64,000 nucleotides of DNA from Candidatus Saccharimonadales bacterium. Its GTDB lineage: Bacteria; Patescibacteriota; Saccharimonadia; Saccharimonadales; EFPC-124. Positions 8,009 through 40,250 of the stretch are shown in pieces. The stretch lies in the NCBI GenBank assembly GCA_050730875.1, contig JBOHNX010000002.1, forward strand, positions 2,894 to 66,893, read 5' to 3'. Positions within the stretch are counted from its first letter, which is position 1; each line of letters opens with the position of its first letter. The notes under the pieces are model-generated. The model was not told the DNA's origin and ran no database searches. It worked only from the letters and a program-made list of their open reading frames with translations. Both the position numbers and the translations under genes were made by a program.

Positions 8009-8811
8009 CCGTCTTCTTCTACCGCATCTTCGATAGATAATTGCCGCTTGCTTTCCAAAGTCGCCCGCAAAGCTGCCAGAAGTTCTTGGTCGGGTGTGGC
8101 GTGCGGTGAAACAATTCGTCGGCGTGGTGGTGGCAAGCCCTTCTTTTTCCTGGTAATGAGGTCTAGCAGACGCTCGGACTGTTCATCGTGATAATCTTCA
8201 ACAAAGAATGGCCCGCTCAGTCGCTGCAGCACTGCTAGAGCGGCGCCAATTTCGGCTGGATTTGGTTGCGGCAATGGTGGTGTGTCAATATCTGTTCTCG
8301 GCACGATTTCTGCGGCAAAGCGCATTTGGTGCAGCACAATAATGTCTTGCCGTACCTGCAAAGCGCCAAGATGCTCTTTGTTATACAGGACAAATTGCAC
8401 GATCGCTACCTTATTGCCGCGTACCAGCACCTCGCGCAGCAACGCGTAGGCGCGTTCGCCACCCTTACTCGGCACGACATAATACGGTTTTTCGTAATAA
8501 ATGGGGTCAATTGCGCTCACGTCGCAAAACTGACGCACCTCGATACTTTTTAGCCTGGTTGCTGCGGTGCGTTCTAGCTCTTCATCGCTTATCACTACGT
8601 AGCTGCCCGGTTCAGATTCGGCTGCGCGGATTGTCTCGCTATTTGGTATTTCTTTACCTTCGGCCTGGCACTTCACAGCTTGTTCAGTGGGCGAATTGTC
8701 CTTTTCGTGTAATCGAGTAAAGCGTGGACGAATAGTTTTGGTTGCCCCATAGAGTCGGACTGGAATTGTCAGCTGGCCGATAGTTACATATCCTTGCCAT
8801 GTTGCCTTCAT
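8005..8811 (-). CDS. ku: Ku protein (NHEJ DNA end-binding), copy 1
   Basis: MKATWQGYVTIGQLTIPVRLYGA is a typical Ku N-terminus. AGGAGGGA RBS lies before the ATG at 8811, so the longer ORF to 8898 is rejected. Confidence 0.9.
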   Translation of the reverse strand: MKATWQGYVTIGQLTIPVRLYGATKTIRPRFTRLHEKDNSPTEQAVKCQAEGKEIPNSETIRAAESEPGSYVVISDEELERTAATRLKSIEVRQFCDVSAIDPIYYEKPYYVVPSKGGERAYALLREVLVRGNKVAIVQFVLYNKEHLGALQVRQDIIVLHQMRFAAEIVPRTDIDTPPLPQPNPAEIGAALAVLQRLSGPFFVEDYHDEQSERLLDLITRKKKGLPPPRRRIVSPHATPDQELLAALRATLESKRQLSIEDAVEEDG

Positions 8812-8870
8812 ACTCCCTCCTCTTACGAAGGGTAGTTGACGCCGAGATTTTTTACAGCGAGATTTTTCGC

Positions 8871-9554
8871 CTAGGCTTCGAGGTGTCCGGTGAACCAATC
8901 GCGCTTTAGTTGCGCTTTGGGCAGAGCATAATTGCGTAGCAGCGAGTCGCCAATTTCGTCAACCATGGCGCTCGGGCCAGAAACATAGATGAGACTATTG
9001 GTCATAGTTGGCACATGGGTGGCCACAAGCTCGCTAGTCAGGCGTTTTCCGGTGACATACACAACCTTAAAATTAGGATCAGCCGCCTGCCAGGCGTCGA
9101 GTTCGCCCTTAAAAGGCATGTCGTCGGTCCTGGCTGCATAGAGTAAAATCGCCGGTATTGGCTGCCTCTCGTGCACACGCTGCTTTAATATGGCATGAAA
9201 CGGCGTGATGCCAATACCACTTGCTACAAAAATTTTTTGTGTAGAATCATCGTTCCAAACAAAATCGCCTTCAATTGCGTAGCCGTCGACTTCGTCACCA
9301 GGTTGAAGATTCTTTAGCGCCTGCTTAAATTCGCTCTTACTTACCTTGGTAGTAATTGCAATTTCCTTTTCATATGGCGCAGAAGAGACGGTAAACCGGC
9401 GCTCTTCCACGCCGTAGCCCGCGGGAATTTCTATACGAATAGATTGACCAGCCTGCCACTGCAATGGTTCGGCCGGTAAAAATATAAACGAATAAACATC
9501 GCCTGCTTCAGGTTGTACGCGCTGGAATATAAGTTTCATGTGCTCGTTCATCAT
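8871..9554 (-). CDS. FNR-like FAD/NAD(P)-binding oxidoreductase
   Basis: RRFTVSS (RxYS-type FAD motif) and GIGITPF (NAD-binding) in a 227-aa protein. Confidence 0.7.
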   Translation of the reverse strand: MMNEHMKLIFQRVQPEAGDVYSFIFLPAEPLQWQAGQSIRIEIPAGYGVEERRFTVSSAPYEKEIAITTKVSKSEFKQALKNLQPGDEVDGYAIEGDFVWNDDSTQKIFVASGIGITPFHAILKQRVHERQPIPAILLYAARTDDMPFKGELDAWQAADPNFKVVYVTGKRLTSELVATHVPTMTNSLIYVSGPSAMVDEIGDSLLRNYALPKAQLKRDWFTGHLEA

Positions 9555-10336: not shown

Positions 10337-11920
10337 GTGAACACACTTCATATACCTACGAAGGTGATCGGTAAGGCATTTACTCTAATAGTCGCAGGCG
10401 TCGTAGTTGGCTTGGCTGCAATGCTAGTACCGCTACAGGCACAAGCCGCCGCTTGCACGCCGCCTTCGACCGATTATGGAACGGTATCGGCTAGCCTCAC
10501 CGTGCCATCAACAGCGACATACCGTATTTGGAGCCGCATTATGGCACCTGATACCAGCAACAACAGCTATTTATTAGAAATTGACGGAGCCAACTGCTAT
10601 GTCGTTGGCGGTAAGAGCATCTCTGCAAATGCGTGGACGTGGGTCGATTACCAAAACGGTAACACCGCATCAAAAGTGAACTTGTCGCTCACCAAGGGTA
10701 CTCACAGTGTCAAGTTTATTGGCCGTCAGCCGAATGTAAAACTTGACCGCCTTGTTGCAACCTCCGACCTTACCTGCATGCCAACAGGCAACGGCGACAA
10801 CTGTAACACGCCTTCCGACACTACACCGCCTTCTGTTGACATTACCGATCCCAAAGAAGGCACAATAGTTTCTGGCACGGTTGCCATTACGGCCAATGCG
10901 AGCGATAACATCGGGGTATCGCGTGTCGAATTCTTCGTCGACAGCCAACTCATTACAACCGATACTAGTGCTCCCTACAGCGCCAGCTGGGATTCAAAAA
11001 GCTCATCAAACGGCTCTCATCGTCTGACTGCGAAAGCGTTCGATGCTGCCGGAAACCAAAGCACCGACAGCTACTTGGTGACAGTCCGCGACGGCGACAG
11101 CCAACCGCCAGCGCCACCAAGCAATGTTGTTGCCACGCCCACTCATAATAGCGTAACTGTCGGCTGGGGTGCTGTATCTGGTGCCGTCGGCTATACCGTC
11201 AGTCGCGATGGCGTACCGATGGCAAATGTTGGTAATACGACAACCTTTACCGACACAAGCGTGTTGCCTAACACCCAGTACATCTATCACGTAACCGCGT
11301 TCGATGCTGCCGGAAACAAGTCGCTGCCGTCTGAAAAAGTCACGGTAAAAACTCTTGACGTCCCCGATACAGAGGCGCCGAGCGCACCGACAAACCTCAC
11401 CGCCACAGCAGCCAACTCTACACAAGTCAACCTCAGCTGGAACGCCAGTACTGACAATGTTGGAGTTGCCGAATATGAAGTGTACCGCAAGACCGCCAAC
11501 AAAACAGCTGAAAAAGTTGCAAGTGTCGCCTCAACGAGCTTCGGCGACACAAATCTTAAAAAATCAACTGCTTACACCTACTACGTAATCGCCAAAGATC
11601 CTAAGGGCAATACAAGCGGGCGATCACCAGAGGTAACAGTAAAAACGCCTGCCGCACAGCGTAAAGGAGTCCTGCGAGGCACCGTACTTAGCGGCAAGAC
11701 CAATAAACCGACAGCTTATGCCAAAGTGCGAGTAGTTGTTGGCAATAACGAGCTCACGTCCGTCACCAACTCTCAAGGTAGGTACCAGATACGTAAGCTT
11801 GATCCTGGCCGGTACAACGTTACCTACAGTAAGGGTAGTACCTACTTCCCGCGGTCGCTGTCAGTTCGAGTAAACAACAACGTGGTGACCCAAGATGTCA
11901 CACTTAAGTACAGGCAATAA
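10337..11920 (+). CDS. secreted multidomain surface protein (CBM-like + Ig-like + 2 FN3 + carboxypeptidase-regulatory-like)
   Basis: Signal/TM at the N-terminus. Ig-like block ITANASDNIGVSRVEFFVD. Two FN3-like repeats (PSNVVATPTHNSVTVGW; PTNLTATAANSTQVNLSW). C-terminal GRYQIRKLDPGRYNV. Confidence 0.65.
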   Translation: MNTLHIPTKVIGKAFTLIVAGVVVGLAAMLVPLQAQAAACTPPSTDYGTVSASLTVPSTATYRIWSRIMAPDTSNNSYLLEIDGANCYVVGGKSISANAWTWVDYQNGNTASKVNLSLTKGTHSVKFIGRQPNVKLDRLVATSDLTCMPTGNGDNCNTPSDTTPPSVDITDPKEGTIVSGTVAITANASDNIGVSRVEFFVDSQLITTDTSAPYSASWDSKSSSNGSHRLTAKAFDAAGNQSTDSYLVTVRDGDSQPPAPPSNVVATPTHNSVTVGWGAVSGAVGYTVSRDGVPMANVGNTTTFTDTSVLPNTQYIYHVTAFDAAGNKSLPSEKVTVKTLDVPDTEAPSAPTNLTATAANSTQVNLSWNASTDNVGVAEYEVYRKTANKTAEKVASVASTSFGDTNLKKSTAYTYYVIAKDPKGNTSGRSPEVTVKTPAAQRKGVLRGTVLSGKTNKPTAYAKVRVVVGNNELTSVTNSQGRYQIRKLDPGRYNVTYSKGSTYFPRSLSVRVNNNVVTQDVTLKYRQ

Positions 11921-17691: not shown

Positions 17692-20139
17692 TTAACCTTC
17701 AATTTTCTTAATGATAGCAGCTAGGTTGATCCCTTTGCCAACTACCGGCTTCCATAAATCACCCACACGCTTAAGCCGCGTTGGCGTGTTTTTGATAGTG
17801 AAATCGGTCGGTTTTAGTTTCGGAGTTACTTCGTCCCAATGCAGCGGCATCGATACCGTGGCATCTGGTGTTGGGCGCAAACTATATGGCGCGGCCAGCG
17901 TTTGGCCTTCGCGATTCTGCAAAAAGTCTACATAGATTTTGTGCTGTCGTTTTTTTGGCATACGTTCTACACTGGTGATTTTCGGTTGACGCCTATTTAT
18001 TTCGATCGCAATGAGGTGAGCAAGATTTTTGCATTGTTCGTGCGTGTACTTTGCACCCGCCGGAATGTACACATGCAGGCCGGTTTTGCCCGATGTCTTG
18101 GGGTACGTTGGTATCTTCCATTCGTCGCACACCGCTTTTACTGTATGTGCGACTTCCACTACTTTTTTAAACGAAACGCCCTCTGGATCGAGGTCTATCA
18201 CAATCCAGTCCGGGTTATCCAAATGGCCAACGCGTGAATTCCAGGGGTTAATTTCGACACAGCCAAGTTGCACCATGTACAGCAACGTATCTAAATTATC
18301 GCTTACAATCCAACGAATGTTTGCGTTGTTGGACTGGGAAAAAATATCGGCGTGCGGCACCCAATCTGGCAAATGCTCATTATTTTTCTGGAAGAACGAC
18401 TCGCCTTTAACGCCGTTTGGCATGCGGTTGAGCGAGCACGCACGGGCCTTAATGTACGGCAGAATGTACTCGGCAATCGAGCGATAGTAATCGGCGATAT
18501 CGCCTTTCGTATATTTGTGTTTCGGGAAGAAAACCTTATCGGCGTGAGTGAACTCAAACGGTAAGTCACCTGGGTTGCCAGGGCTTTTTTTCGGCACAAC
18601 TGCTTTTGGTTTTTCGCGGTGGATGTCTTTTGCATTTTTGTCTGGCCGTAAGCCTTCAAATTGTGGTTGGCGCATATACCCTTCTTTCGTCCATTCGCTA
18701 AAACTCATCTCACATACCAGCTCTGGCTTCACCCAGTGCACTGGCGCATTTGGTTTGGGTTCAACTTTAAATGGCGATTGTTTACGTTCACGCTTAGCCA
18801 GCTTGTCTCGCAGCAACCGCCGTTGATCGTCAGGAATACCACCGCCAGAATGGCCGACGTAGTGCAACTCGCCTTTTTCGTAGACGCCCACTACCAGCGA
18901 TCCAAGGTATTTTCGTCCACCGCGTGGCTCGGTGTAGCCGCCGATTACAACTTCTTGTCGCAAGTGTGTTTTCATCTTTAGCCATTCCCTGCCACGCACA
19001 TTTTCGCGGTAGGGACTGTCTGCCTTCTTGGCAACCATACCCTCTAAATGACGCTCTCTCATTTCTTCAAAAAGCGCGACGCCCTTTGTTTCTACGTGGT
19101 CGCTATAGCGAAGCACATCGTTCTTTGGCAAAATGCTTTTTAGTAACTTTTTACGTTCAGTTAAGGGCATGGTTCCGAGGTCCCGACCATCGCACCACAA
19201 GATATCAAACAAAAAATAATGGAGCGTACCGTGCGGGCCGCGGTGCCAGTTTTGCAGCCATTCAAAACGGGCGGTGCCATTTTCGTCCACCACCACAATT
19301 TCGCCATCGACAATTACATCGTGTTTAAACGCACGCATGGCTTCGGCAACGGGAGGATACTTGGCGGTAAAGTCGAGGTCGTTACGCGAATAAAGTTCGA
19401 TGTCATCTTTGCGTTTGCTACCGATAGCGCGGTAGCCATCCCACTTAATTTCGAAAAGCCAGCCAACTCTATCGAACGGCTCTTCGACCAATGTGCAGAG
19501 CATTGGCTTCACCATCCAGAGCTTAGCTTTTTTTGGATAATCAGAGAGGTCCGGCAGCTTGTTCTTCGCGCCAAGCTCGTCGACTTTCTTGTGGCTTTTA
19601 ACCGATTCGTCCTGCTTGGTTATGTCTTCTTTTGATGCGAATTCATCACCTTTTTTAACAAGCAGCCATGCGTCTTCATCCGTGGCGTTATGCATTTTTA
19701 TGAGCGCGAATTCACCCTTTAGTTTTTTGCCATGCAGAATAAAGGTCAAATGGCCCTTTTTCAGTTCTTTCCGTAAGGTTTTTTCGCTGTCTGCAGGGTC
19801 ACCTTTACGGGCAACGTAGCTACCTTCGTCCCAAATAATCACGTTGCCGGCGCCGTAGTTGCCTTCCGGAATGACCCCTTCGAACTTTCGGTATTCGTAC
19901 GGGTGATCTTCGGTCCGGATTGCCAAATGGTGCTCGTGCGGGTCAAGGCTTGGGCCTTTTGGCACAGCCCAGCTTTTTAGCACGCCATCGAGCTCTAACC
20001 GGAAATCATAATGCAGTCGCGAAGCGTGATGTTCTTGCACGACGAACGCCAGTTTTTTGCTTTTGGTATGCTTGAGCTTACCTTTTGGTTCGGGAGTTTC
20101 TTTGAAGGATCGTTTCTTAAAATACTTCCCGAGGCCCAT
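17692..20139 (-). CDS. ligD: multifunctional NHEJ ligase LigD (phosphoesterase - ligase - polymerase order)
   Basis: PE domain FVVQEHHASRLHYDFRLELDGVLKSWAVPKGPS; ligase adenylation motif EIKWDGYR; C-terminal primase-polymerase domain (VIDLDP, LHVYIP). Confidence 0.9.
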   Translation of the reverse strand: MGLGKYFKKRSFKETPEPKGKLKHTKSKKLAFVVQEHHASRLHYDFRLELDGVLKSWAVPKGPSLDPHEHHLAIRTEDHPYEYRKFEGVIPEGNYGAGNVIIWDEGSYVARKGDPADSEKTLRKELKKGHLTFILHGKKLKGEFALIKMHNATDEDAWLLVKKGDEFASKEDITKQDESVKSHKKVDELGAKNKLPDLSDYPKKAKLWMVKPMLCTLVEEPFDRVGWLFEIKWDGYRAIGSKRKDDIELYSRNDLDFTAKYPPVAEAMRAFKHDVIVDGEIVVVDENGTARFEWLQNWHRGPHGTLHYFLFDILWCDGRDLGTMPLTERKKLLKSILPKNDVLRYSDHVETKGVALFEEMRERHLEGMVAKKADSPYRENVRGREWLKMKTHLRQEVVIGGYTEPRGGRKYLGSLVVGVYEKGELHYVGHSGGGIPDDQRRLLRDKLAKRERKQSPFKVEPKPNAPVHWVKPELVCEMSFSEWTKEGYMRQPQFEGLRPDKNAKDIHREKPKAVVPKKSPGNPGDLPFEFTHADKVFFPKHKYTKGDIADYYRSIAEYILPYIKARACSLNRMPNGVKGESFFQKNNEHLPDWVPHADIFSQSNNANIRWIVSDNLDTLLYMVQLGCVEINPWNSRVGHLDNPDWIVIDLDPEGVSFKKVVEVAHTVKAVCDEWKIPTYPKTSGKTGLHVYIPAGAKYTHEQCKNLAHLIAIEINRRQPKITSVERMPKKRQHKIYVDFLQNREGQTLAAPYSLRPTPDATVSMPLHWDEVTPKLKPTDFTIKNTPTRLKRVGDLWKPVVGKGINLAAIIKKIEG

Positions 20140-20142
20140 GGC

Positions 20143-20907
20143 CTATTCCTTTAAGCTCGCCTTAAGGGCAGACATAAGATCTTTCGAGGTCGTGGCTTTT
20201 GGTGCTTTGCCGCCCTTTTTTGGTTTTTTGCCCTTTGTTTTTGCTTTAATCATTTCTTCGAGTTCTTCGGTGTAGGTATCGCGCAAGTCTTCAGCAATGA
20301 ACGGCTTTGTTTCTTGGCGAACCAACTTCACTGCCATTTCTAACTCTTTGGCAGTCACTTCCTTATCTGTTGGTAGATTAAGTTCGCCTGGCTCGCGCAA
20401 GTCTGACGGATAGCGCATTTGGTTGAGTACCAAGGCACGTCCGAGCGGCTTAATAACTGCTATATGTTCGCGCTCATGCAGCACAAACTTAGCCAGCGCA
20501 AGCTTGCCGGATTTTTGCAGAGCACTGCGCAAAAGCGCATAGGCCTTATCGCCGCCTTTTACAACTTCTAGATAATACGGCTTTTCAAAATAACGAATAT
20601 CGATATCGCCAATGTCGACAAATTGCTGGATATCGATTGTCTGTGTTCTCTTAACATCCAGACTCTCAAGCTCTTTTTGTGTCAGTACAACGTAGTCACC
20701 ATCTTGGTATTCGTACCCTTTGACGATATCGTTCCATGGAATTTCCTCGCCATCTTTGCGGCAAATGCGCGCGTAGCGAATTGGCGCGTGGTCTTCCTTG
20801 TGCAGCATGTCGAGGTCAATGCCCTCGCGCGGATTCACCGCGCTGTACATGCGCACTGGGATGTTAATAAGTCCAAAGCTGATTGATCCGTTCCAGATTG
20901 CCCTCAT
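20143..20907 (-). CDS. ku: Ku protein, copy 2, with Lys-rich C-terminal tail
   Basis: MRAIWNGSISFGLINIPVRMYSA begins at the internal ATG at 20907 of the 490-aa ORF. The tail is KAKTKGKKPKKGGKAPK. The gene ends 3 nt before ligD. Confidence 0.9.
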   Translation of the reverse strand: MRAIWNGSISFGLINIPVRMYSAVNPREGIDLDMLHKEDHAPIRYARICRKDGEEIPWNDIVKGYEYQDGDYVVLTQKELESLDVKRTQTIDIQQFVDIGDIDIRYFEKPYYLEVVKGGDKAYALLRSALQKSGKLALAKFVLHEREHIAVIKPLGRALVLNQMRYPSDLREPGELNLPTDKEVTAKELEMAVKLVRQETKPFIAEDLRDTYTEELEEMIKAKTKGKKPKKGGKAPKATTSKDLMSALKASLKE

Positions 20908-21040
20908 ACTACTTATGGTACCAGAGTTTCCATCAACGAAAAAAGCTTTCGGCAAGCCAAAAGCTGAAGTAGACCAGAAGCGCAGTTTGGATGGGGCGAG
21001 GTTGAACGCCCCGCCCCATCCGTACAACCGTTCAGGCAGA

Positions 21041-21615
21041 TTAACGCTCCACCCGGTTGTACCATTTCCAGAATGGCACGCCATACTTCCAATGGCGAGC
21101 CAGCACGTTGGCGGCGTGGTAGCGCTGGTTTTCGGTAGTCCCGAAAGACACCCTAGTCTCAATGGTATCGGCCATGGCGCCAAAGCTTTGGCCCAGCAGC
21201 AAATGCCGCTGCATAAGCCTTGCCCAACGGATCGCAAAGTCAACGATCGAATCGTTGTACGCTTCGCGGAGCATTGTTTCGGCCAACTTCCATTCGTCGG
21301 GATGTGTCGGCTTGAACTCCGGCGGCTGACAATCTCCTTCTCGAGTTCTTGGCGCCGCCGTAAAAGATTCGGCTTATCCCTTAGCTTCATCTTTTCTTCC
21401 TGCCGCCGCCAGTCTGCTAGCACGTGCTGCATGTCCGAACTCGCCTCGACGCTCGTCTTCTGCTGATTGTGTTCAAACTGAACATCCGCTTCGAGGTTGA
21501 AGGCGAGCCGAACGGCATCGCGGAGACCATTTTCAACGTTAGCATCCGGCCGCAGCCGGACACTGTAGTGATGTGGACCCTTCTTCCTGATTCGAGTCAG
21601 ATTAGGGTACTGCAT
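21041..21615 (-). pseudogene. hypothetical gene interrupted by a -1 frame change near 21314-21330
   Basis: The protein-like reading MQYPNL...RRRQELEKEIVS continues only in another frame (PPEFKPTHPDEWKLAETMLREAYNDSIVDFAIRWARLMQ...WYNRVER*). In the original frame the text degrades to Cys/Trp/Ser/Arg-rich junk until the Ku start. Confidence 0.5.
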
Positions 21616-21826: not shown

Positions 21827-22363
21827 TTAAGAAAGATATTCTTCTAGTTCAGAGCTTGCTAATGTTAGGTTATTGATTCTCTCAGGTAGCTGTCTTTGCA
21901 AGACAGCTAAATCGGCTTCATCATTGCCAGTGAGTTTCATAGAAGCGGTTAGCTCTTCAAGTGCCCTAGCAATTTTAGCATTTCCGCACCCCACAACAAG
22001 CTGTCCATCTTTTATTCTTATATTCCATGAGTAGCCCCGGTCATCCACCATGTAATTCCCACTCAATACCCAGTACGAAGGATAAAAGTTACCACTTAGG
22101 TAGTCGCTAACTATCTTTTTAAATCTTTCAAGTGCTTCAACATGGTCAGTGCCAGAAAAGAAAGGGTCAAGTTCGTCAAACATAACTCCCGTGTGTACTT
22201 CGGCTAGCATTAGATTTTTTGGCTGAGTGTAATCAGGGTAATACCTTATTCCAGTTGCATACAACTTCTTCTCAATATCCTCAGGGCTTAGATTTTCAGC
22301 ATCGTCAATAATTGCCTGGCAGGCATGAGCGTATGCTTTATCAATAGGATCGTCAGTAACCAT
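21827..22363 (-). CDS. hypothetical protein (low-GC)
   Basis: 178-aa ORF, no motif recognised. By eye about 38-40% GC. Confidence 0.5.
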   Translation of the reverse strand: MVTDDPIDKAYAHACQAIIDDAENLSPEDIEKKLYATGIRYYPDYTQPKNLMLAEVHTGVMFDELDPFFSGTDHVEALERFKKIVSDYLSGNFYPSYWVLSGNYMVDDRGYSWNIRIKDGQLVVGCGNAKIARALEELTASMKLTGNDEADLAVLQRQLPERINNLTLASSELEEYLS

Positions 22364-22645
22364 AACTACATGATAACAAAAGAGCCATTTATCGCTCTCT
22401 TGGTCTAGTATTCTACGGTGGCCCTTAAGGTATTACTTGTACTTTCCTGCAATTCGCTAGTGGGTTGGGCATTATCTGGACCAGGATAAGCGTCAGAACC
22501 GTCAGGGGCTCGAATCTTTTTAACAGACAAAAAGTGCCTCTCCAATTTGAGAGGCATAGGCACGAACTAAAATCACATCTGAATGTATATTATTAGAGGG
22601 CCATAGTGGTTGCTATCGCAACTAGAGTGATGGCCACGGACAGTA

Positions 22646-23455
22646 TTGTATAATCGCTTCATGACAGCCACCAAAGGATCAAGCGGCTTTGAATATAGAA
22701 ACAAGCAAGATGAGTCTCCCTTTGAAACCTTCTTAAGATACACGAATCAAAAAGAGGCCTCATCCAAACAACTCTCTAAAATCCTTCAAACCCTTAATAG
22801 TGAATCCAAGATTTTAGATATTGGCACGGGCAACGGCGAGTATCTAAGACTCACCCTATCTCAGCTAAAAGATACTGAGAATATTCATCTTACCTTGATA
22901 GAGCCTAGCATAGACCTGGTGAAGCAACTTGAAAATCGATTTAAAAATACACTTCCAAAAGACAACGTTACAATTATCCATTCCGATTTAGATAGCTTTT
23001 CGAGTAATGAAAGATTTGATGCAGTCATTGCCGCTCATCTTTTCTACCATATTCCTCGCTCTGAGTGGCCTCGACAGTTAGAAAAGGTGATGTCACTCTT
23101 GAAACCCGAAGGCAAACTGATTATTGTCCTTCGCGATAAGGATGATGCATACAACTTTAAGATGAAGTTTAAACCACTCCTTTCGGATAAGCCCTTCTCG
23201 GCAATGACCATTAACGATGTTATATCGGTGCTTCCGAATCTCAATAAGTTGAACGTTACTCAATACTCAAGTGAATCTGAATTAAAGATTCCAATTAATA
23301 ATACGGATGACACAGAATCTATTATAGAATTCTATCTCAATGAGCAATGGCAAGATATTCCAATTGCTATTCAGCAACAAGCGCTCGATTTCATTAATAG
23401 TAAGCACGGCGTGTTTAAACAAGTCGATGGTATAACTGTGATAGAAAAACGTTAA
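22646..23455 (+). CDS. class I SAM-dependent methyltransferase (low-GC)
   Basis: Motif I ILDIGTGNGEY and motif post-I LIEPS. Confidence 0.75.
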   Translation: MYNRFMTATKGSSGFEYRNKQDESPFETFLRYTNQKEASSKQLSKILQTLNSESKILDIGTGNGEYLRLTLSQLKDTENIHLTLIEPSIDLVKQLENRFKNTLPKDNVTIIHSDLDSFSSNERFDAVIAAHLFYHIPRSEWPRQLEKVMSLLKPEGKLIIVLRDKDDAYNFKMKFKPLLSDKPFSAMTINDVISVLPNLNKLNVTQYSSESELKIPINNTDDTESIIEFYLNEQWQDIPIAIQQQALDFINSKHGVFKQVDGITVIEKR

Positions 23456-23476
23456 ATAGATATACTTTTCCATAAC

Positions 23477-23500
23477 AAAAGACTTCCGAGAAGTCTTTTT
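23477..23500. terminator. bidirectional intrinsic terminator hairpin
   Basis: AAAAGACTTC-CGA-GAAGTCTTTT with T-runs on both strands. It follows both the methyltransferase gene and the tRNA-Lys 3'-end copy. Confidence 0.5.
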
Positions 23501-23515
23501 TGTGTAATAAATTCT

Positions 23516-23702
23516 TGGAGGGCCATCTGGGGCTCGTTCATTTCTGGCTCACTCCAGCTAAAGCTTCCGTTCGGCTTAACGAGGATTCTTCGGACTGCCG
23601 CTGGCAGCCCTCAACCCAAGGACACCTAAAGGTGTCTTGGGCAAGCCTAGAAGATCATGCCATAGAAAAAGGACCTACGCTAAAAGGTAGGTCTTTTTTC
23701 TA
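23516..23702 (-). repeat. tRNA-associated miniature element, copy A (ends in 21-nt copy of the tRNA-Lys 3' end)
   Basis: 23516-23536 is identical to 23703-23723. There is an internal terminator hairpin at 23666-23699, a conserved 49-nt core at 23547-23595 and a hairpin at 23592-23610. Confidence 0.7.
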
Positions 23703-23779
23703 TGGAGGGCCATCTGGGGCTCGAACCCAGGACACCCTGCTTAAGAGGCAGGTGCTCTAACCAGCTGAGCTAATGGCCC
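23703..23779 (-). tRNA. tRNA-Lys (anticodon CTT), CCA encoded
   Basis: Manual cloverleaf: GGGCCAT/TA/GCTC..GAGC/A/CCTGC-CTCTTAA-GCAGG/GTGTC/CTGGG-TTCGAGC-CCCAG/ATGGCCC/T/CCA. Confidence 0.95.
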
Positions 23780-23864
23780 AAACATTACTCGAACGGATAA
23801 AATTGTATACTAATTTACCTCTGTTGTAAACCGGTTATAATAAAAGCAGTTATAAGGAGCTACC

Positions 23865-24116
23865 ATGGCAGACGCTAAGCCTCAATCAAAACCATACCAA
23901 CGTAATTACTTTATCGCTTTGGTTTTAAGCATTTTTGTAGGGGAATTCGGGATTGACCGCTTTTACATGGGTAAAATCGGCACGGGCATACTCAAGCTGC
24001 TCACCTTTGGCGGCCTGGGTATCTGGTGGATTATCGACATTGTGTTGATTGCCACTGGTGAAATGCGCGACAAAAATGGCAAGCGCTTAACGCGCGATTT
24101 TAACCTTCCCGGGTAA
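23865..24116 (+). CDS. TM2 domain membrane protein
   Basis: FVGEFGIDRFYMGKIGTGILKLLTFGGLGIWWIIDIVLI is a typical TM2 domain. Confidence 0.8.
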   Translation: MADAKPQSKPYQRNYFIALVLSIFVGEFGIDRFYMGKIGTGILKLLTFGGLGIWWIIDIVLIATGEMRDKNGKRLTRDFNLPG

Positions 24117-24383
24117 TTCCACTTCCATTTCGTCAATATAGCACCACTTAAAACGGTGTTTGGTTTTGTAACCTCGCATTATCGGGTGCCCGACTGTTTT
24201 GAAGTGTTTCGTTGCATGCTTGTTTTTAGAGCTATCGCAGCAGCCAATATGACCACAGGTCAAGCACATGCGGAGACTTACCCAAGTGTCCCCCAGTGCT
24301 AAGCACTCCTCGCAACCATTTGGTGTTTTTGGCTTAACGCCTTCTTTAATCAAACCGATGTGTGTGCATTGTTTTTGTGCCAT
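24087..24383 (-). CDS. UBP-type zinc finger protein
   Basis: CEECLALGDTWVSLRMCLTCGHIGCCDSSKNKHATKHF shows the Cys/His pattern of zf-UBP. Confidence 0.75.
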   Translation of the reverse strand: MAQKQCTHIGLIKEGVKPKTPNGCEECLALGDTWVSLRMCLTCGHIGCCDSSKNKHATKHFKTVGHPIMRGYKTKHRFKWCYIDEMEVELPGKVKIAR

Positions 24384-24392
24384 GGTTTTATT

Positions 24393-24602
24393 TTAATCGA
24401 ATATCTTGGCCTGGCTACGTAATTTAATTTCTTCGGTAATCATTTGGGCATGTTTTTTCTCGTCTTCCAGGATCTTTTTGAGCGTATCTACGCTATGGCA
24501 CTTCACTTCTTCCGCGTCCTTGATATAGTGATTCTCGAGCTGCCACACAATATCAAGCGTTTGGTGCAATAATTTCACCAAATCGTAATTGATATCTTTC
24601 AT
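24393..24602 (-). CDS. hypothetical small helical protein
   Basis: 69-aa ORF directly upstream of the zf-UBP gene on the same strand. Confidence 0.45.
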   Translation of the reverse strand: MKDINYDLVKLLHQTLDIVWQLENHYIKDAEEVKCHSVDTLKKILEDEKKHAQMITEEIKLRSQAKIFD

Positions 24603-24705
24603 AGATACCTCCCACCTAATTAGTTAAACGCACTCAGTATATAAATTGCTGCGCTATAAATATGCCGAAAATCTCACATTCAGAGATCTAGGTCGGCAAC
24701 TTGTT

Positions 24706-24804
24706 TTAGTAATTCAGAGTGGTAATCCAATCAAACCCGATTATAAAAGCCAGGCCTGCAAGAATTACAAGTAAGAGGATAACGGTGCGCTGCCATTCTT
24801 TCAT
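24706..24804 (-). CDS. possible 32-aa single-TM peptide coupled to the sortase gene
   Basis: Not in the ORF track (<60 aa). Its ATG overlaps the sortase stop (ATGA). Sequence: MKEWQRTVILLLVILAGLAFIIGFDWITTLNY. Confidence 0.3.
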   Translation of the reverse strand: MKEWQRTVILLLVILAGLAFIIGFDWITTLNY

Positions 24805-25385
24805 GGTGCGGTCTCCATAAGTTGTGCTTGTACGACTAAGCGCCGCTCAGACGTCCACAAAGGTGTACATGTATACAAGGTCAGCAAAGGCTCATCAGTA
24901 TCCGCTTCTATTTCAACTGCCGTAGGTTTTACTTCTTTTATAGCGGTCACCTTATAGCTATAACGAGCCTTGTCCCAATATACGATAATTTCGTCACCCT
25001 GGCTCATTTTATCTAGATGATAAAAGGGTGTCTTTTCGCGGTACGCAAACCTGTGGCCAGCTAATACAGTGTTGCCCCCTATATCTGGGGTGCTAGTTTG
25101 TGGACGTCGCCAAACGCCCAATGCCAGTGTTTTCGCACTCTCCCCTTCATATATCTGGGTTTCGAGATTAAGTTTAGGAATAACTAGGGTGCTCTTGTCT
25201 GGAAAGTTAGCAGGATCTGCTTTTGACTCTATAGATTTTACTGCGTTTACTCCGGTTTGGGCGGTCACCCAAAAAGTAAACTGCGGCAGCAAGGGCATTA
25301 GTAAAATATACACGCCAAGCAGCACGGCAATTCCAGTTAAGAAGTCGTTGAACCGACGTAAGCTAAATGACAGCTTATTCTTCAT
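24801..25385 (-). CDS. sortase (class E-like)
   Basis: TM anchor, catalytic His in LAGHR, Cys in TLYTCTP, Arg in RRLVV. ATG at 25385 is preferred over 25424. Confidence 0.8.
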   Translation of the reverse strand: MKNKLSFSLRRFNDFLTGIAVLLGVYILLMPLLPQFTFWVTAQTGVNAVKSIESKADPANFPDKSTLVIPKLNLETQIYEGESAKTLALGVWRRPQTSTPDIGGNTVLAGHRFAYREKTPFYHLDKMSQGDEIIVYWDKARYSYKVTAIKEVKPTAVEIEADTDEPLLTLYTCTPLWTSERRLVVQAQLMETAP

Positions 25386-25509
25386 ATCGAAAAATATTTT
25401 ATATCTGTTGTCAAGGATATGCAAGCGTAAGCATAATAATAAATATACTTGTTTATTTGTAAATATTAGTGTATAAGTAAATCATTCATCTTAAGGAATG
25501 GAGTCTCAA

Positions 25510-25677
25510 ATGAGTGTAGATAGCCCAATTCTCGGCATCTCTACAGTCGCTGGCCTTGGTGGTGGTGCAGCATCTGTATTAGCTGACACCGGCAACCCAT
25601 TGCTGGTTGGCGTGGTAGTTGGCGCCCTAATGCTTATTGTATTAGGTTTCGTAACTCGCGCAGCACAACAGCGCTAA
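25510..25677 (+). CDS. 55-aa protein consisting almost only of a LAXTG-type sorting signal
   Basis: Not in the ORF track (<60 aa). AAGGAATGGAG RBS. Sequence: MSVDSPILGISTVAGLGGGAASV-LADTG-NPLLVGVVVGALMLIVLGFV-TRAAQQR (motif + hydrophobic span + basic tail). Confidence 0.5.
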   Translation: MSVDSPILGISTVAGLGGGAASVLADTGNPLLVGVVVGALMLIVLGFVTRAAQQR

Positions 25678-25733
25678 ACAATTTGGTAAAAGGGTGTTGA
25701 GAGGGAACGCCGTTCCCTCTTTATTTTTTAGAC

Positions 25734-33940: not shown

Positions 33941-34480
33941 TTAGCTAGCGCCAAGTGCTTTGGCGAGGACGTCGCCGAGCAAGTAGGCCACTGCGGCGGC
34001 GATACCGCCCAAAGCCAGCGTTTCAAATGCCGCTTTTAGCTGGCTGGTCTTTGTCATTTGGCCTTTTATGATGCCGATGGCCATAAAGGCTGCACCGGTT
34101 AAGAAACAGCTGCTTGCAAACAGAGAGGTAGGTTCAAGACCAAGCCCAAAAAGCGCGTCCACTACATACATAAGCACTGGAATAAATCCAACAACCACGA
34201 ATGCTGCAAATGTTGCGAGGCCATCACCAACCGGCGTCTCGCCTCCCTCGTGCTCTTCGTTCTTACTGACTTTTAAGTCGCGTTCTGACTTTGCTGAAAG
34301 GTAGGCACTGGCCCCCATCGAAAAACCATCGGCTATTAAGTTTGCGAAGCCCAAAATAATAATGACTGTCGAGCTAAGCTTGGCACCTGCCGAAGCTGCA
34401 ACGACCGCAAATGTTGTTACGGTGCCGTCGATGGCGCCGTACACTAACTGTCCTAAATATTGTTCGAATTTTGCTTTCAC
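33941..34480 (-). CDS. VIT1/CCC1 family iron/manganese transporter
   Basis: YGAIDGTVTTFAVVAASAGA plus five hydrophobic spans. Start overlaps the upstream gene stop (34477-34480). Confidence 0.8.
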   Translation of the reverse strand: MKAKFEQYLGQLVYGAIDGTVTTFAVVAASAGAKLSSTVIIILGFANLIADGFSMGASAYLSAKSERDLKVSKNEEHEGGETPVGDGLATFAAFVVVGFIPVLMYVVDALFGLGLEPTSLFASSCFLTGAAFMAIGIIKGQMTKTSQLKAAFETLALGGIAAAVAYLLGDVLAKALGAS

Positions 34481-36873
34481 TGTTTTAATGCCTCATCTAC
34501 ATCGGACAATGTTACCTGAATCACATCGCCCGGTGCAACCTGCCCAGCCAGTAAGCGTTTAGCGACGATATTTTCGACGGTTCGCTGTACTACTCGACGA
34601 AGTGGGCGAGCGCCAAGGCGCGGGTCGTTTCCGACTTCGACCAACTTAAGTTTGGCATCATCGGCAACTTGCACGCTAATTTGTTGTTGCGCGAGGGTTT
34701 TGTTGACGCTGCCCAGCATAAGGTCAACAACCTGCAGCAGTTCTTCGGCAGTGAGTGGTCGGAAGGTCACGATTTCGTCAAAGCGGTTCAAAAACTCGGG
34801 CTTGAACTGTTGGCTGTTAATAAGTTGGTCGATAAATTGCGGTTCGAATTGCTCGAGACTTTGCCCTGCTTCTATAGCTTTGCGAATAGCATCTGCGCCA
34901 GCGTTACTGGTCGCGATAATAATTGCATCGCGAAAGCTGACTTCACGGTTGTTAATGTCGCGCAAAATGCCTTCGTCGAGCAACTGCAGCAGGGTGTTAA
35001 GCACATTGCCGTGCGCCTTTTCGATTTCGTCCAGCAGCACAACACTAAACGGCTGTTTGGCAATTTGCGCGGTCAGGCTGCGCGGGTCGGTTGCCCCGTC
35101 GGCAATCAGGCGTTTTACGTCACTAGCGCTACCAAATTCGTTCAAATCGAGACGCACTAAACGATCTTCGCCCCCAAAATAAACTGCCGCCAGCGCTTTG
35201 GCGAGTTCGGTTTTACCAACACCAGTCGGGCCTAAAAACAAGAAGCTGCCGATTGGCCGATTTTGGTTGCGCACACCGCTGCGGGCGCGGCGGAGTGCGT
35301 TTGCTACTACTGTTACAGCTCGCGTCTGATTGACCATTCGCTCGTGCAGTAACTGCTCCAAATTGAGCAAAGTCTGTCGTTCATCACCCTGACGTGCAGT
35401 CGCAACTTTAACACCAAAGGTCTGCTCAACCGCTTGTTCAACGCTTGCCGCAGTCACCAAACCACCCTGCGCGTTTTGCGCAGCTGCTTCGAGCAGTGTT
35501 AAGGCCTGGCCTGGCATGGCTTGGTCTGGCACATAACGCTGACCGAGGCGATAAGCCGCTTTGAGGGTTTGATACATGTAGGTCACTTTGCGGTGGAATT
35601 CGTGCATCAGCAACTGGTCTTCACTTACAAGCAGCGTGTCTGCTTCGCCTAGGCTTGCGACGGTGATGCGATTAAGTTTTTGAGCAAGGCTCGGTGTCGC
35701 GCGGCTCAAGCGCAGCCATTGTTGCTCGTCCATAGCTAAGATCATGCGCAGTCCGCCGCCTTCTAGTACTGGCAAAAGCACGTTGCGCAGATCCACCGCG
35801 CCGGTTTCGTCACTAAAGAAAAGTTCGGCATTATCGAAAAATAGAATAACATTTTTTGCGTGGTAGGCTTCGATTAAGATTTGATTGAGTAATCCTTCCA
35901 GCTCTCCTCGACCTCTAGCATTACTAATTAGGCTAGCTGGGTCGAGCGCCATAACTTGGCGGTAGCGCAACTCGCTTGGCACGCCAGCTTCGTCGTGTAG
36001 TAGTTTTTCAGCAAAGGCATAGACTAGCGTTGTTTTACCAACGCCCGATGGACCAACCAGCACAGCATTCTGGCGACCGCCCTTACCTAATTGCTGCATC
36101 AGTTGGCCAAGCAGCGCTTGGTGACCTTCGAGTTTTCGTGTTAACGCACCTCCCCCGCCCGCAACTTGGTCGCTCACATTTACTGCGAATCGGCTCAAAA
36201 GTGGCGTATAACCAAAGCTCAAGTCACGTCCAATACCACCGCCAAGTTTGCGTTGTTTTTCGGCCGCAATAAGATCTTGTAGATGGTGGTACCAGCGTAC
36301 GCCGGCATGTATATCGTCTAACTTGAGTTGCAGCTGAGCGAGGAGTTGGTCACGACCTGGCATTACCTCTACCAGCGCAGCCGTAACAACCGCGGTTGAA
36401 ATAGTGGGCAGTTGTAATTTAGAACGCAAATCCAGCGCAACATTCCAAATTTTTTCAGTGTCTGCTGCATTTGAACTGCTGAGCGTGCCGAGAAAATTTG
36501 GCCCAATGCCAAACCGAATCGCAAAAAATAGTCCGCCATTGGTGCGCATAGTAAGTTCAGCTAATTGCTTGGGCGAAACATCGTGCGGCAATTGCTCCAA
36601 TAACTGGCCGTCGAGCAAATCATCGATAGAATTAGCAGTTTTAGCCGGCGGTAAATCCTTTAGCCACCATTCATGCCAAACCAGCGGCATCAGCGGCCAA
36701 GCAGCAAGTGTTACTACAAGCCAACCTACTGACTGAGCTTGCAGGATTAACAGCAAACCAAATAGTACTAGAACACCGACAACTGCAACAATTGTGGGCT
36801 TAAACCACTTTTGGCCAAATAACTTGCCGCTACGTGCTTGACGAGCGCGAACACTTTGGAGGTTAACCTGCAT
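34477..36873 (-). CDS. membrane-anchored double-ring Clp/Hsp100-family AAA+ protein (atypical)
   Basis: Two N-terminal TM spans. D1 has Walker A GPSGVGKTT and Walker B ILFFDNAE (DE to DN). D2 has Walker A GPTGVGKTE and Walker B VVLLDEIEKAH. C-terminal ARPLRR. Confidence 0.8.
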   Translation of the reverse strand: MQVNLQSVRARQARSGKLFGQKWFKPTIVAVVGVLVLFGLLLILQAQSVGWLVVTLAAWPLMPLVWHEWWLKDLPPAKTANSIDDLLDGQLLEQLPHDVSPKQLAELTMRTNGGLFFAIRFGIGPNFLGTLSSSNAADTEKIWNVALDLRSKLQLPTISTAVVTAALVEVMPGRDQLLAQLQLKLDDIHAGVRWYHHLQDLIAAEKQRKLGGGIGRDLSFGYTPLLSRFAVNVSDQVAGGGGALTRKLEGHQALLGQLMQQLGKGGRQNAVLVGPSGVGKTTLVYAFAEKLLHDEAGVPSELRYRQVMALDPASLISNARGRGELEGLLNQILIEAYHAKNVILFFDNAELFFSDETGAVDLRNVLLPVLEGGGLRMILAMDEQQWLRLSRATPSLAQKLNRITVASLGEADTLLVSEDQLLMHEFHRKVTYMYQTLKAAYRLGQRYVPDQAMPGQALTLLEAAAQNAQGGLVTAASVEQAVEQTFGVKVATARQGDERQTLLNLEQLLHERMVNQTRAVTVVANALRRARSGVRNQNRPIGSFLFLGPTGVGKTELAKALAAVYFGGEDRLVRLDLNEFGSASDVKRLIADGATDPRSLTAQIAKQPFSVVLLDEIEKAHGNVLNTLLQLLDEGILRDINNREVSFRDAIIIATSNAGADAIRKAIEAGQSLEQFEPQFIDQLINSQQFKPEFLNRFDEIVTFRPLTAEELLQVVDLMLGSVNKTLAQQQISVQVADDAKLKLVEVGNDPRLGARPLRRVVQRTVENIVAKRLLAGQVAPGDVIQVTLSDVDEALKQ

Positions 36874-37240
36874 TAAGGCCTCCAGACATTAGCATAAAAC
36901 CAATAATTGGCGCCAGCGGTATAAGCGGCCAGGCAACAACCAGTAGTAAACCGACAAGGCCTGTAATTGCCGCCAGCAGCAACCCGGCTAAAATAAGCAG
37001 CATGCGTACAATTGCGCCGATCACTCTCGAAAATTGACGGTCAAACCATGCACTCAGCTGAACGCCCAAAGGTCCTTGCACACGCCCGGCAGATATCTGG
37101 CGAAACGGTGCGAACAAACTACCTGCCAAAAGTCCGACCGAAAAGAAATTCAACACGCCTTGCACGCGCCCACCGACACGAGTCATTAGCTTGAGCCAGC
37201 CAGGGCCGTACCACCACGAAATGAGCAGGGGGACAAACAT
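36863..37240 (-). CDS. hypothetical integral membrane protein
   Basis: 125-aa ORF, 3-4 hydrophobic spans. It overlaps the AAA+ gene start by 11 nt. Confidence 0.5.
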   Translation of the reverse strand: MFVPLLISWWYGPGWLKLMTRVGGRVQGVLNFFSVGLLAGSLFAPFRQISAGRVQGPLGVQLSAWFDRQFSRVIGAIVRMLLILAGLLLAAITGLVGLLLVVAWPLIPLAPIIGFMLMSGGLNAG

Positions 37241-37257
37241 AAGCTTATTGTAGCAGC

Positions 37258-38466
37258 CTATCGCTCAAAAACGACACAGAGCGGTGTGCATTCACTCCCT
37301 TGCCCAAGCGGATTGTCGGCAAAAATGGCTTCGAGCTGTTCTTCGCCATCAACGGTGTCGTGGCCTAGTACATTACGGCCGAGGTCGTTGGCATCGATCA
37401 CCACCACGCCGCGGAAATTGGCCGTTAGCTCTGGATGCAAGCGCTTTTTCAATAATTCGGATAGCTCGACTGCGACTTTTTGTGGGTCTTCTGGCGGCAA
37501 TTTGGCGGAAACGTTTGAAGGGTACACCGAATATTCAGTTGGCCCATCGATCGCTCGTACGTCTGAGCCAGCTAAAATGTAAAACCAGCCTTTTTTGCCT
37601 ACCATTTTGCCTAGAATTCCGCCAGCCGCCGCAAACATAATGCGCGGCAAACCAGCTTCCTGGATTGCTAGCTGCATGGTCCACGGGCTGCCTAGCCCAA
37701 TGCCGTATGGCGTACGTACCACAAATCGGCTTAGCAGACGCGCCCAAACGCCGGGTTTAATATCCCAAATAAAATACGAGCGGCCTTGGGTAATTGCGAC
37801 TATTTTTTCGCTGACGAACAGCTGCCAAGGTCGCATTAATAGATCGGAATGTTCTTTGGGCGCTTTTTTGAGCGTTTCAAAAAACTGCTCAACGCGCTCT
37901 AGAATGTACGGCTGCAAATCATCTTCGGCGCTGACCATCTTGGTTTTCAATGGATAGCGGCAAAAGGTCTGCTCGCCAACAGTAAGATCAAGTTTTTTAC
38001 CTTCATTTGGTACTAAATCCGATTTTGGCGGCAGCTGCAGCGCGGTTAAATCTTGCACTACTTGCTTGGCATGCTTTTTCGGATCAAGGCGCGCGTACTC
38101 TTTTACAATTTCGCCATTTGGGTCGATAATGCACGTCCGGCGCAGTAAATCAGTGTCTTTGAGACCTGTTGCGCGGTACGCATTGAGCACTTCCCCATCT
38201 GGATCACTCAACATTGTAAACGGCAGCTCATGCTCTTTTACAAACTGTTCATTCGCCGCGACTAATCCTTCCGAAACACCCAAGATTGTGACGCCGAGCG
38301 CCTGAAAATCGTTATGTTCATCTCGAAACGCGCGCGCTTCTGCAACGCAGCCTTTGGCCAAATCTGCCGGACAGAAATATAAAACCAGCCATTTGCCGCT
38401 GTAATCGCCCAGGGTATGAGTTTTACCGTTTTGATCTTTCAAAGAAAATTTTGGTGCTTTTGCCAT
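37258..38466 (-). CDS. fusion of a peroxiredoxin (Bcp-like) domain and a CofE-like (F420-0:gamma-glutamyl ligase family) domain
   Basis: N-terminal KFSLKDQNGKTHTLGDYSGKWLVLYFCPADLAKGCVAE (Prx fold with peroxidatic Cys). The C-terminal approx. 230 aa contain EKIVAITQGRS...IDGPTEY, resembling CofE-family proteins. Confidence 0.6.
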   Translation of the reverse strand: MAKAPKFSLKDQNGKTHTLGDYSGKWLVLYFCPADLAKGCVAEARAFRDEHNDFQALGVTILGVSEGLVAANEQFVKEHELPFTMLSDPDGEVLNAYRATGLKDTDLLRRTCIIDPNGEIVKEYARLDPKKHAKQVVQDLTALQLPPKSDLVPNEGKKLDLTVGEQTFCRYPLKTKMVSAEDDLQPYILERVEQFFETLKKAPKEHSDLLMRPWQLFVSEKIVAITQGRSYFIWDIKPGVWARLLSRFVVRTPYGIGLGSPWTMQLAIQEAGLPRIMFAAAGGILGKMVGKKGWFYILAGSDVRAIDGPTEYSVYPSNVSAKLPPEDPQKVAVELSELLKKRLHPELTANFRGVVVIDANDLGRNVLGHDTVDGEEQLEAIFADNPLGQGSECTPLCVVFER

Positions 38467-39637: not shown

Positions 39638-39753
39638 CGACATCGAACACAATTGGCAGATGGTCGGATGCCTGTATTCCAACTCATCATTCGCAGAACA
39701 GCTCATCCGTTTAGACTTGCTAGTATTATATCGCGTATGAGGAGGGGATTGTG

Positions 39754-40155: not shown

Positions 40156-40179
40156 GGTCGAATTATACTATAGGTTTAT

Positions 40180-40202
40180 AATATTTGACTACCTCAAATA
40201 TT
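40180..40202. promoter_or_regulatory. perfect 9-bp inverted repeat, candidate MarR operator
   Basis: AATATTTGA-CTACC-TCAAATATT in the 95-bp MarR/MFS divergent intergenic region. Confidence 0.4.
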
Positions 40203-40250
40203 TAGATATACTGGTTTCTGTATGTTCGAGAAATTAACAAAAGGAAACGT

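Follow-up and report, generated by a model that had tools for sequence, protein, structure and literature searches.

A family of small non-coding inserts behind tRNA genes of Saccharibacteria, bounded by repeats of the tRNA 3' end and tentatively read as integrase-less miniature integrative elements

What is a segment of DNA with no gene of its own doing behind an intact tRNA gene, closed off on its far side by an exact copy of that gene's 3' end? The question is raised by a locus of Candidatus Saccharimonadales bacterium, in a 64,000-nucleotide (nt) stretch of contig JBOHNX010000002.1 that we refer to throughout as the window, where the tRNA-Lys(CTT) gene is followed by an insert of 187 bp. 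A preliminary description of the window offered two hypotheses for it: a non-autonomous integrative element mobilized in trans, comparable to a cis-mobilizable element (CIME), or a small RNA gene with a tRNA-like 3' tail. We find that this insert does not stand alone: small non-coding inserts of one family lie at the 3' ends of several tRNA genes in Saccharibacteria. We read these inserts, with a confidence that stays somewhat short of even, as CIME-like miniature integrative elements devoid of an integrase, in other words as satellites, or pared-down derivatives, of those integrative elements that target tRNA genes in this phylum.

The tRNA-Lys(CTT) gene occupies positions 23703-23779 on the minus strand; ARAGORN and Rfam (67.6 bits for the tRNA model) both report it, and it is intact with an encoded CCA. 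The 21 nt at its end, CGAGCCCCAGATGGCCCTCCA, are present in the window at exactly two places, both on the minus strand: once as the tRNA 3' end itself (the proximal repeat, 23703-23723) and once as an exact distal copy of tRNA nt 56-76 (23516-23536), with 166 nt between them. None of 100 dinucleotide-preserving shuffles held a match to the 21-mer, even with three mismatches tolerated, and none is expected by chance. The repeat runs from C56 in the T loop (TTCGAGC) to the terminal A of the CCA, and the base that follows differs between the two copies (T versus A). Only one open reading frame (ORF) of at least 50 aa crosses the 187-nt insert, in antisense (23500-23760). Both the exact repeat and the gene-less character of the insert had been reported in the preliminary description, and both hold.

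Read along the tRNA strand, the inserts of this family have a recurrent order of parts. Directly at the CCA comes a hairpin terminator whose stem pairs CCA with TGG, then an imperfect inverted copy of the host T arm or acceptor, and then the core, which in Lys inserts is preceded by a direct copy of tRNA nt 44-60; the core leads into the T-loop-to-CCA repeat, behind which the native flank resumes. Of these parts, the repeat and the inverted and direct copies match the host tRNA. At tRNA-Lys of the window the parts all lie on the minus strand: the terminator at 23660-23702 (-24.4 kcal/mol, with its U-run on the tRNA strand), a decayed inverted copy of the tRNA 3' half at 23631-23659 (CCCAAGACACC, the complement of nt 44-54), the direct copy of nt 44-60 at 23610-23626 (GGTGTCCTTGGGTTGAG, comprising the variable loop, the 5' strand of the T stem, and part of the T loop), and the shared core at 23537-23616 (the hairpin GCTGCC-AGC-GGCAGT, TCCTCGTTAAGCCGA, and the bases after it; 52.8 bits with a covariance model). 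The inverted copy pairs both with the direct copy and with the start of the distal repeat. Behind the distal copy stands the original tRNA-Lys terminator (23474-23501, -10.0 kcal/mol), a bidirectional hairpin with a T-run that also closes the methyltransferase gene at 22646-23455. A terminator directly behind the genuine tRNA and another behind the displaced copy had been proposed, and we recover the two. As an observation on the wider region, GC content dips to 41-43% at 22001-26000, against ~49-50% elsewhere, over the tRNA-Lys locus and the methyltransferase, TM2, zf-UBP, and sortase genes.

Which part of this arrangement is native DNA and which is extra can be seen from genomes where the site is unoccupied. 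Loci from other assemblies are given here by L numbers. The flank past the distal repeat aligns at 83% identity with the sequence directly behind tRNA-Lys in the insert-free locus L005, and the same type of flank stands directly behind tRNA-Lys in L037 and L039 as well; L005 shares no neighboring genes with the window and is therefore not a close relative. The distal flank of an insert in L023 likewise resembles, by eye, the flank directly behind tRNA-Lys in L047, and tRNA-His, which carries an insert in the window, has none in L070 and L071. Since the distal flank is native, the hairpin that adjoins tRNA-Lys and the interior behind it are extra DNA, and the distal repeat is the one that sits beside the native terminator; the adjoining hairpin is missing from the unoccupied L005 site, while the same hairpin type is present in the sister inserts. 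The distal copy is thus probably the displaced original 3' end of tRNA-Lys, judging from the homology of its flank. The pattern of occupied and unoccupied sites fits insertion, and the attL/attR-like geometry that had been recognized at this locus stands. In L071, a high-GC ORF of 131 aa with a foreign-looking composition (10735-11130) lies between convergent tRNA-His and tRNA-Gly genes, at the position of the His insert of the window.

The window contains further members of the family. The sister insert behind tRNA-His (33414-33490) spans 33491-33695 on the plus strand and shows four parts in order: a terminator (33491-33528), an inverted T-arm copy (33531-33540), the core (33556-33664), and, ~140 nt past the inverted copy, a 19-nt exact copy of the tRNA-His 3' end (33677-33695, plus strand). 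Positions 23547-23600 of the Lys insert and 33611-33664 of the His insert are identical at 51 of 54 nt, and the similarity reaches the repeat boundary. A decayed and older sister lies behind tRNA-Pro(TGG) (45212-45288), at 45011-45211 on the minus strand, with its terminator first, followed by an inverted copy (45144-45158), the core (45087-45140), a 19-nt T-arm copy (45039-45057), and an 11-nt acceptor copy (45011-45021).

The covariance model finds five cores in the 64 kb, three of them in the inserts behind Lys, His, and Pro(TGG) and two outside such inserts. One of the latter adjoins the 5' end of tRNA-Pro(TGG) in inverted orientation (45289-45345, plus strand; E 0.002), with CCCCG on each side; the leader of this tRNA is unusually long (~85 nt), and the inverted core separates the mature 5' end from a likely promoter with TATAAT near 45381. 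The other sits inside a degenerate tRNA-Pro(CGG)-like gene (43202-43357, minus strand), which matches the whole Rfam tRNA model at 23.4 bits (E 0.018), is missed by ARAGORN, and is split between variable loop and T arm by ~85 nt of core (43262-43315; 59 bits) flanked by (T)CG. Because three of seven acceptor-stem pairs are mismatched, this gene is probably a pseudogene; it begins directly past the stop codon of an FMN-reductase gene. Beyond the window, the model matches cores in L023, L052, L026, and L073, all of them tRNA-linked, and in the ~540 kb searched it detects no core away from tRNA-related DNA. An independent Logan assembly (L069) matches 24381-43310 of the window at 100% and ends at 43310, inside a core copy, so these repeats fragment short-read assemblies.

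How far does the family extend? The 21-mer is the 3' end common to tRNA-Lys(CTT) and tRNA-Lys(TTT) in Saccharibacteria, and an exact scan for it, with one genome per species, returned 29 loci, 25 from Candidatus Saccharibacteria/Saccharimonadales metagenome-assembled genomes and 4 that are chance matches in GC-rich coding DNA. Exact repeats of 19-22 nt occur 165-320 nt behind tRNA-Lys(CTT) in L052 and L062, behind tRNA-Lys(TTT) in L023, L034, and L060, behind tRNA-Arg(TCG) in L052, and behind tRNA-Leu(CAG) in L023; decayed versions of the insert are found in L001, L003, L015, L018, L020, and L026. Among 97 non-redundant tRNA genes, 16 have a significant downstream copy of their own 3' end, or ~14 once two are discounted that we take as matches to a neighboring tRNA gene (L021 Arg and L035 Ala, the latter discounted unchecked). 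The repeat is perfect over at least 19 nt in 7 of these ~14 insert-bearing genes, and the others range down to decayed. Insert size runs from ~80 to 320 bp, with most copies at 165-190 bp.

The interiors are shared between inserts at different tRNAs and also fall into at least two unrelated types, as distinguished by eye. Type A has a CTGCC-NNN-GGCAG hairpin with TCCTYGYTWRGCCGA, and type B is GGAGCGATGTC...CAGCGAGAC; the interiors of the Lys insert in L062 and the Arg insert in L052 also look alike. The direct copy of nt 44-60 recurs in the Lys inserts of L052, L023, and L003. In L023, a tandem pair stands behind tRNA-Leu, its proximal repeat perfect and its distal one decayed, and a relic third unit, behind tRNA-Lys, follows a 12-nt remnant of a tRNA-Lys 3' end. 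Between the fresh and the relic insert of this locus lies a P-loop kinase-like ORF of 178 aa (4590-5160, 318-883 nt behind tRNA-Lys(TTT)), and a similar gene is found directly behind tRNA-Lys in L004 and L041. Another metagenome contig, L030, has the 21-mer on both strands, 1.2 kb apart, in inverted arms that are nearly identical apart from single-base indels; the ARAGORN call at this place is an odd tRNA, and the arms may be a fold-back assembly artifact.

The ends of the repeat indicate how much of it comes from the host. In six exact-repeat inserts the identity stops at the CCA plus at most two bases. Where the T loop is not TTCGA, as at His and Leu (TTCAA), identity does not begin before A57/A58, and the (T)CG ahead of it belongs to the insert, from which we conclude that the host-derived repeat is probably ~19 nt (A58-A76) and not 21. 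The earlier placement of the repeat start within the T loop is therefore correct for the identity at Lys, which does begin at C56, and needs shortening for the host-derived part.

L073 offers a view of the same locus in another genome. Its methyltransferase is 72% identical to that of the window, and at tRNA-Lys(CTT) it carries a related insert, nearly identical in the terminator stem. The inverted and direct copies of this insert agree with the T arm of L073 itself, which is a different one, and the distal repeat has decayed. The methyltransferase and tRNA-Lys genes, adjacent in the window, are separated in L073, so the locus is variable; between them lie two YoeB/Phd toxin-antitoxin pairs (5396-5914 and 7906-8422), a YunG-like gene, and an APH gene.

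If the inserts are mobile, what would move them? Scanned against Pfam, the window's 50 largest ORFs gave no integrase (PF00589), transposase, reverse transcriptase, or Cas-like protein, in agreement with the original statement that the window lacks an integrase. Recombinases do appear at the same tRNA in relatives. Locus L076, whose TM2 protein is 83% identical to that of the window and which has the same divergent TM2/tRNA-Lys(CTT) layout, encodes a tyrosine integrase of 361 aa (PF00589) at 2256-3360 that converges on tRNA-Lys(CTT), its called ORF overlapping the tRNA 3' end; an integrated element thus occupies the orthologous site there. In L017 (positions 3-1691 downstream) and in L028, a large serine recombinase of 563 aa lies directly behind tRNA-Lys(CTT). 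The tRNA-Lys 3' end is therefore a site used by integrative elements in the phylum, and because the window has no recombinase and the insert no ORF of its own, any mobilization must be in trans.

We propose, on these comparisons, the following course for a miniature integrative element of this kind. Recombination would take place in the tRNA T loop, at about nt 55-58, and the element would carry in a replacement T-loop-to-CCA segment together with a hairpin terminator, so that the tRNA would remain intact and properly terminated. The original 3' end and native terminator would be displaced downstream, where they would persist as the distal repeat. Fresh copies would enter at the live tRNA, and older ones would thereby be shifted outward and decay. 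In this scheme the proximal repeat would be the one that came with the element, a recombinase encoded elsewhere would act on it in trans, and the core and host-derived inverted copy may serve as its recognition or folding parts. The proposal accounts for where the repeat begins and ends, for the native flank past its distal copy, for the graded tandem arrays, and for the integrase at a relative's site; an identity that stops at the CCA plus at most two bases is what an element-supplied replacement 3' end predicts.

Several points weigh against this proposal and keep it tentative. Near-identical interiors stand at different tRNAs with each repeat matching its own host, which is hard to fit with an integrase of fixed att specificity, and in L073 the host-derived parts track their own T arm, which indicates co-evolution or target copying. 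The extra host pieces, namely the inverted T-arm/acceptor copy and the direct nt 44-60 copy of Lys inserts, are hard to explain as ordinary attP arms, and cores that sit in a tRNA-Pro pseudogene or next to the 5' end of a tRNA fit poorly as well. A 187-bp circle is an awkward recombination substrate. The empty sites could also have arisen by precise deletion between the repeats. Finally, no full-length element with the ends of the insert was found: those of the L076 element have no evident similarity to the window insert, its far end lies beyond the contig, and the viral contigs of IMG/VR gave no match to the 21-mer or the core. Of the original CIME-like interpretation, the att-type repeats around DNA without recombination genes remain, and its weak side is the single family that serves several tRNAs, with additional host pieces and a core that also occurs elsewhere.

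Two other explanations are each unlikely in our view, though substantial enough to be set out in full. In the first, the insert is a structured RNA linked to its tRNA and made by read-through from the tRNA promoter, acting as a mimic, decoy, or processing module that co-evolves with its own tRNA; the inverted copy could pair with the terminal repeat into a helix that resembles an acceptor and T arm, ends in NCCA, and is processed or stabilized by tRNA 3'-end enzymes. The 187-nt sequence does fold into a structure much more stable than its shuffles (z = -4.4, 0 of 200), a signal that is due in part to the terminator hairpin. In 9 of 12 inserts the better-folding strand is that of the tRNA, which also carries the G.U pairs and, in every case, the U-run of the hairpin. 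Moreover, six of the ten pairs of the core hairpin show changes on both sides, a level reached by none of 500 shuffles, and a swap test finds the cognate tRNA 3' end to be the best pairing partner of the left part in 8 of 11 inserts. The agreement of the L073 host-derived pieces with their different T arm and the perfection of the distal repeat between two strongly different flanking terminators point the same way.

Each of these observations has its counterpart, however. A sense-oriented intrinsic terminator stands directly ahead of the insert, leaving no space for a promoter, and the three window copies showed no preference for the cognate tRNA in the swap test. Covariation in the core would be equally expected from the palindromic site of a dimeric DNA-binding protein. 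The predicted closing helices are present, but the CCA is often paired with TGG, fully so in several inserts, which is not tRNA-like; it is lost in many members, and others have indels in the repeat, so the 3' tail is not consistently conserved. The interiors belong to at least two unrelated types. At the gathering threshold, Rfam 15 returned only tRNA matches, with nothing credible up to E = 10 over 23400-23860 and nothing in eight sister loci. The small RNA gene with a tRNA-like 3' tail envisaged earlier accordingly finds no promoter, follows a sense terminator, and has a downstream flank that lies outside the element, although it might be made as a read-through product.

The second of these explanations, also an improbable one in our estimate, separates the insert into two layers. 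A local duplication would have given the tRNA 3' half in direct, inverted, and direct orientation, either through snap-back or a template switch at the hairpins of the terminator and T arm, or as the residue of an old integration, and a separate core resembling a miniature inverted-repeat transposable element (MITE) would have inserted into the TCG(A) of the resulting pseudo T loop, where it would be tolerated because the live tRNA is untouched. Lys inserts can indeed be read in this way, as tRNA, hairpin, inverted copy of the 3' half, direct copy of nt 44-60, core, and nt 56-76. Lone cores exist at TCG or CG sites, namely in the tRNA-Pro(CGG) pseudogene and at the tRNA-Pro 5' end, and L018 has hairpin and repeat with no core between them. 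The five cores in 64 kb and the Logan contig of the same genome that ends within one also suit a dispersed repeat. On the other hand, the same rare rearrangement would be required at many tRNAs in many genomes, and the repeat is perfect in seven inserts whose adjoining pieces are decayed. The proximal hairpin at tRNA-Lys is not the native terminator, since the latter is still found behind the distal repeat. As for the core itself, its short flanking repeats (CG or CCCCG around bare cores) are ambiguous as target duplications, and neither terminal inverted repeats nor a parent insertion sequence (IS) was found.

More speculative is the idea that the inserts are tRNA-directed elements of a new kind, which find their target by base pairing and not through an att site specified by a protein. 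We regard it as rather improbable, both in this general form and as the joint claim that the inverted segment chooses the tRNA and that the ~19-nt repeat (A58-A76, with CCA always at its end) is copied at each insertion, either off the target gene or off mature tRNA. If true, it would explain how near-identical interiors can serve Lys, His, Arg, Leu, and Pro.

A copying route as such, in which every insertion copies the terminal repeat anew, off the target or off the 3' end of the mature tRNA, has in our judgment only a slim chance of being right. Here the boundary near A58 and the CCA end would reflect a tRNA-templated step, and base pairing by the inverted segment would lead the element to its tRNA. 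That the repeat matches each host tRNA while the interiors are shared, that it always ends at the CCA, that the (T)CG ahead of A58 is the insert's own even at hosts with a TTCAA T loop, and that the inverted segment is complementary to the host are all in keeping with such a route. Yet no reverse transcriptase or other candidate enzyme was found in the window or the loci, the CCA is genomically encoded and its position at the end is therefore not diagnostic, and the inverted copies are imperfect even beside perfect repeats. We know of no bacterial precedent for such a route.

It is similarly doubtful that the arrangement is the inert scar of a kilobase-scale tyrosine-integrase island at tRNA-Lys that lost its interior and left attL and attR 166 bp apart. 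The repeat geometry and the presence of integrase- and serine-recombinase-bearing elements at the same tRNA in relatives would suit a scar, but the family data already strain this view. Independent deletions are an unlikely source of a shared size class (mostly 165-190 bp) and part order at Lys, His, Arg, Leu, and Pro in several genomes, homologous interiors occur at different tRNAs, and tandem copies exist. The preliminary description had named an old, inert scar as the outcome should related genomes offer neither empty sites nor further copies; other genomes do have unoccupied sites, and further insert copies exist.

The remaining candidates were rejected: a tmRNA on either strand, whether permuted or standard (read in reverse complement, the repeat looks like a tmRNA 5' end, but the 5' and 3' ends are unpaired, the segment is too short, ARAGORN detects no tmRNA, and Rfam is negative); a group I intron in the T loop (the upstream tRNA is intact, Rfam reports no intron, and known Patescibacteria tRNA introns lie at 35/36); an opposite-strand small RNA with its 5' end antisense to the tRNA 3' end, in the manner of a primer-binding site (the exact complement is missing in other members, the hairpin U-run is consistently on the tRNA strand, and the would-be promoter flank is native DNA outside the element); signal recognition particle, 6S, and RNase P RNAs and self-cleaving ribozymes (no Rfam signal); a TnpB/IscB guide RNA with scaffold and 20-nt guide (neither protein was found, and a guide that targets itself is implausible); and a phage or attP source (beyond the IMG/VR result, phage BLAST matched tRNAs only).

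How do these inserts, read as miniature integrative elements, compare with systems already known? Islands and prophages that tyrosine integrases place in tRNA genes include a T-loop sublocation class, which Williams is said to have described in Nucleic Acids Res in 2002. The inserts share with such islands the direct tRNA 3' repeat from the T loop (21 of 21 nt here), the restored tRNA, the displaced native flank, and the integrase gene at the same tRNA-Lys site in L076. They depart from them in that the window insert has neither integrase nor cargo, measures only 187 bp, and contains extra inverted and direct tRNA pieces, and in that one att specificity per lineage does not describe a family that serves several tRNAs with own-host repeats. 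CIMEs, known from Streptococcus thermophilus, are att-flanked, recombinase-less derivatives of integrative and conjugative elements (ICEs); each extends over kilobases and belongs to a single ICE with a single att site. Att-like repeats around DNA without recombination genes and a proposed mobilization in trans are common to both, whereas the inserts are two orders of magnitude smaller and no cognate autonomous element was identified in the searched loci.

Other likenesses concern size and structure. Like MITEs and REPIN-type repeats, the inserts are small, non-coding, hairpin-rich, intergenic, and multi-copy (five cores per 64 kb), and they break short-read assemblies. Unlike MITEs, they have no clear terminal inverted repeats of their own or fixed short target duplication, and their ends are derived from the host tRNA and differ by tRNA; in contrast to both, they are strictly tRNA-linked, carry a host-matching flanking repeat of ~20 nt (19-22 nt), and have no visible parent IS or RAYT. 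IS200/IS605 miniatures and TnpB guide RNAs differ in that the window has no TnpA or TnpB, the left hairpins vary among copies, and a flanking repeat is present. Integron attC cassettes and elements that exploit Xer, such as the CTX phage, use folded single-strand recombination sites; in the inserts, too, an imperfect inverted repeat could fold into a double-stranded mimic of the target, tandem arrays form at one entry, and some units have no ORF. The GTTCGAG/CTCGAAC sequences of the T loop, however, miss the RYYYAAC/GTTRRRY consensus of attC, no IntI was found, and the target is a T loop instead of attI or dif. Within the phylum, Patescibacteria tRNA genes carry group I introns at 35/36 in the anticodon loop (PMC13011429), likewise a case of tRNA genes interrupted by structured RNA, but those introns are longer and self-splicing, whereas in our case the structured segment follows an intact tRNA, and Rfam finds no intron.

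Elsewhere in the window, the proteins recognized by Pfam include two Ku homologs, LigD, type IV pilus proteins, sortases, and RNase Y. The two Ku homologs, one of 490 aa with a long N-terminal extension, and a full LigD with phosphoesterase, ligase, and primase-polymerase domains form an end-joining kit, encoded at 8005-8898, 17692-20139, and 20143-21615 of what is a reduced genome. A complete kit of this kind is possibly relevant to the fixing of foreign DNA.

Our full-text literature searches on Saccharibacteria and Patescibacteria did not turn up the arrangement, and the sole related report among their results concerns the group I introns (PMC13011429). Small, hairpin-rich inserts trailing tRNA genes apparently constitute an undescribed family. 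There is a real chance that the inserts, related as they are to the integrative and miniature elements of tRNA sites, work by a mechanism that is itself new. For annotation, their pseudo-tRNA pieces can mislead gene callers and those island finders that rely on tRNA-fragment repeats. Saccharibacteria have genomes of ~1 Mb with little non-coding DNA, and despite this compactness roughly one in seven tRNA genes of our sample bears an insert. If the inserts are RNAs, tRNA mimics would gain a new class, and this in a phylum that is difficult to investigate. If they are mobile, we know of no smaller integrative elements linked to tRNA genes; they appear to switch tRNA targets easily, which would bear on the evolution of att specificity, and they could provide a compact means of targeting conserved tRNA sites.

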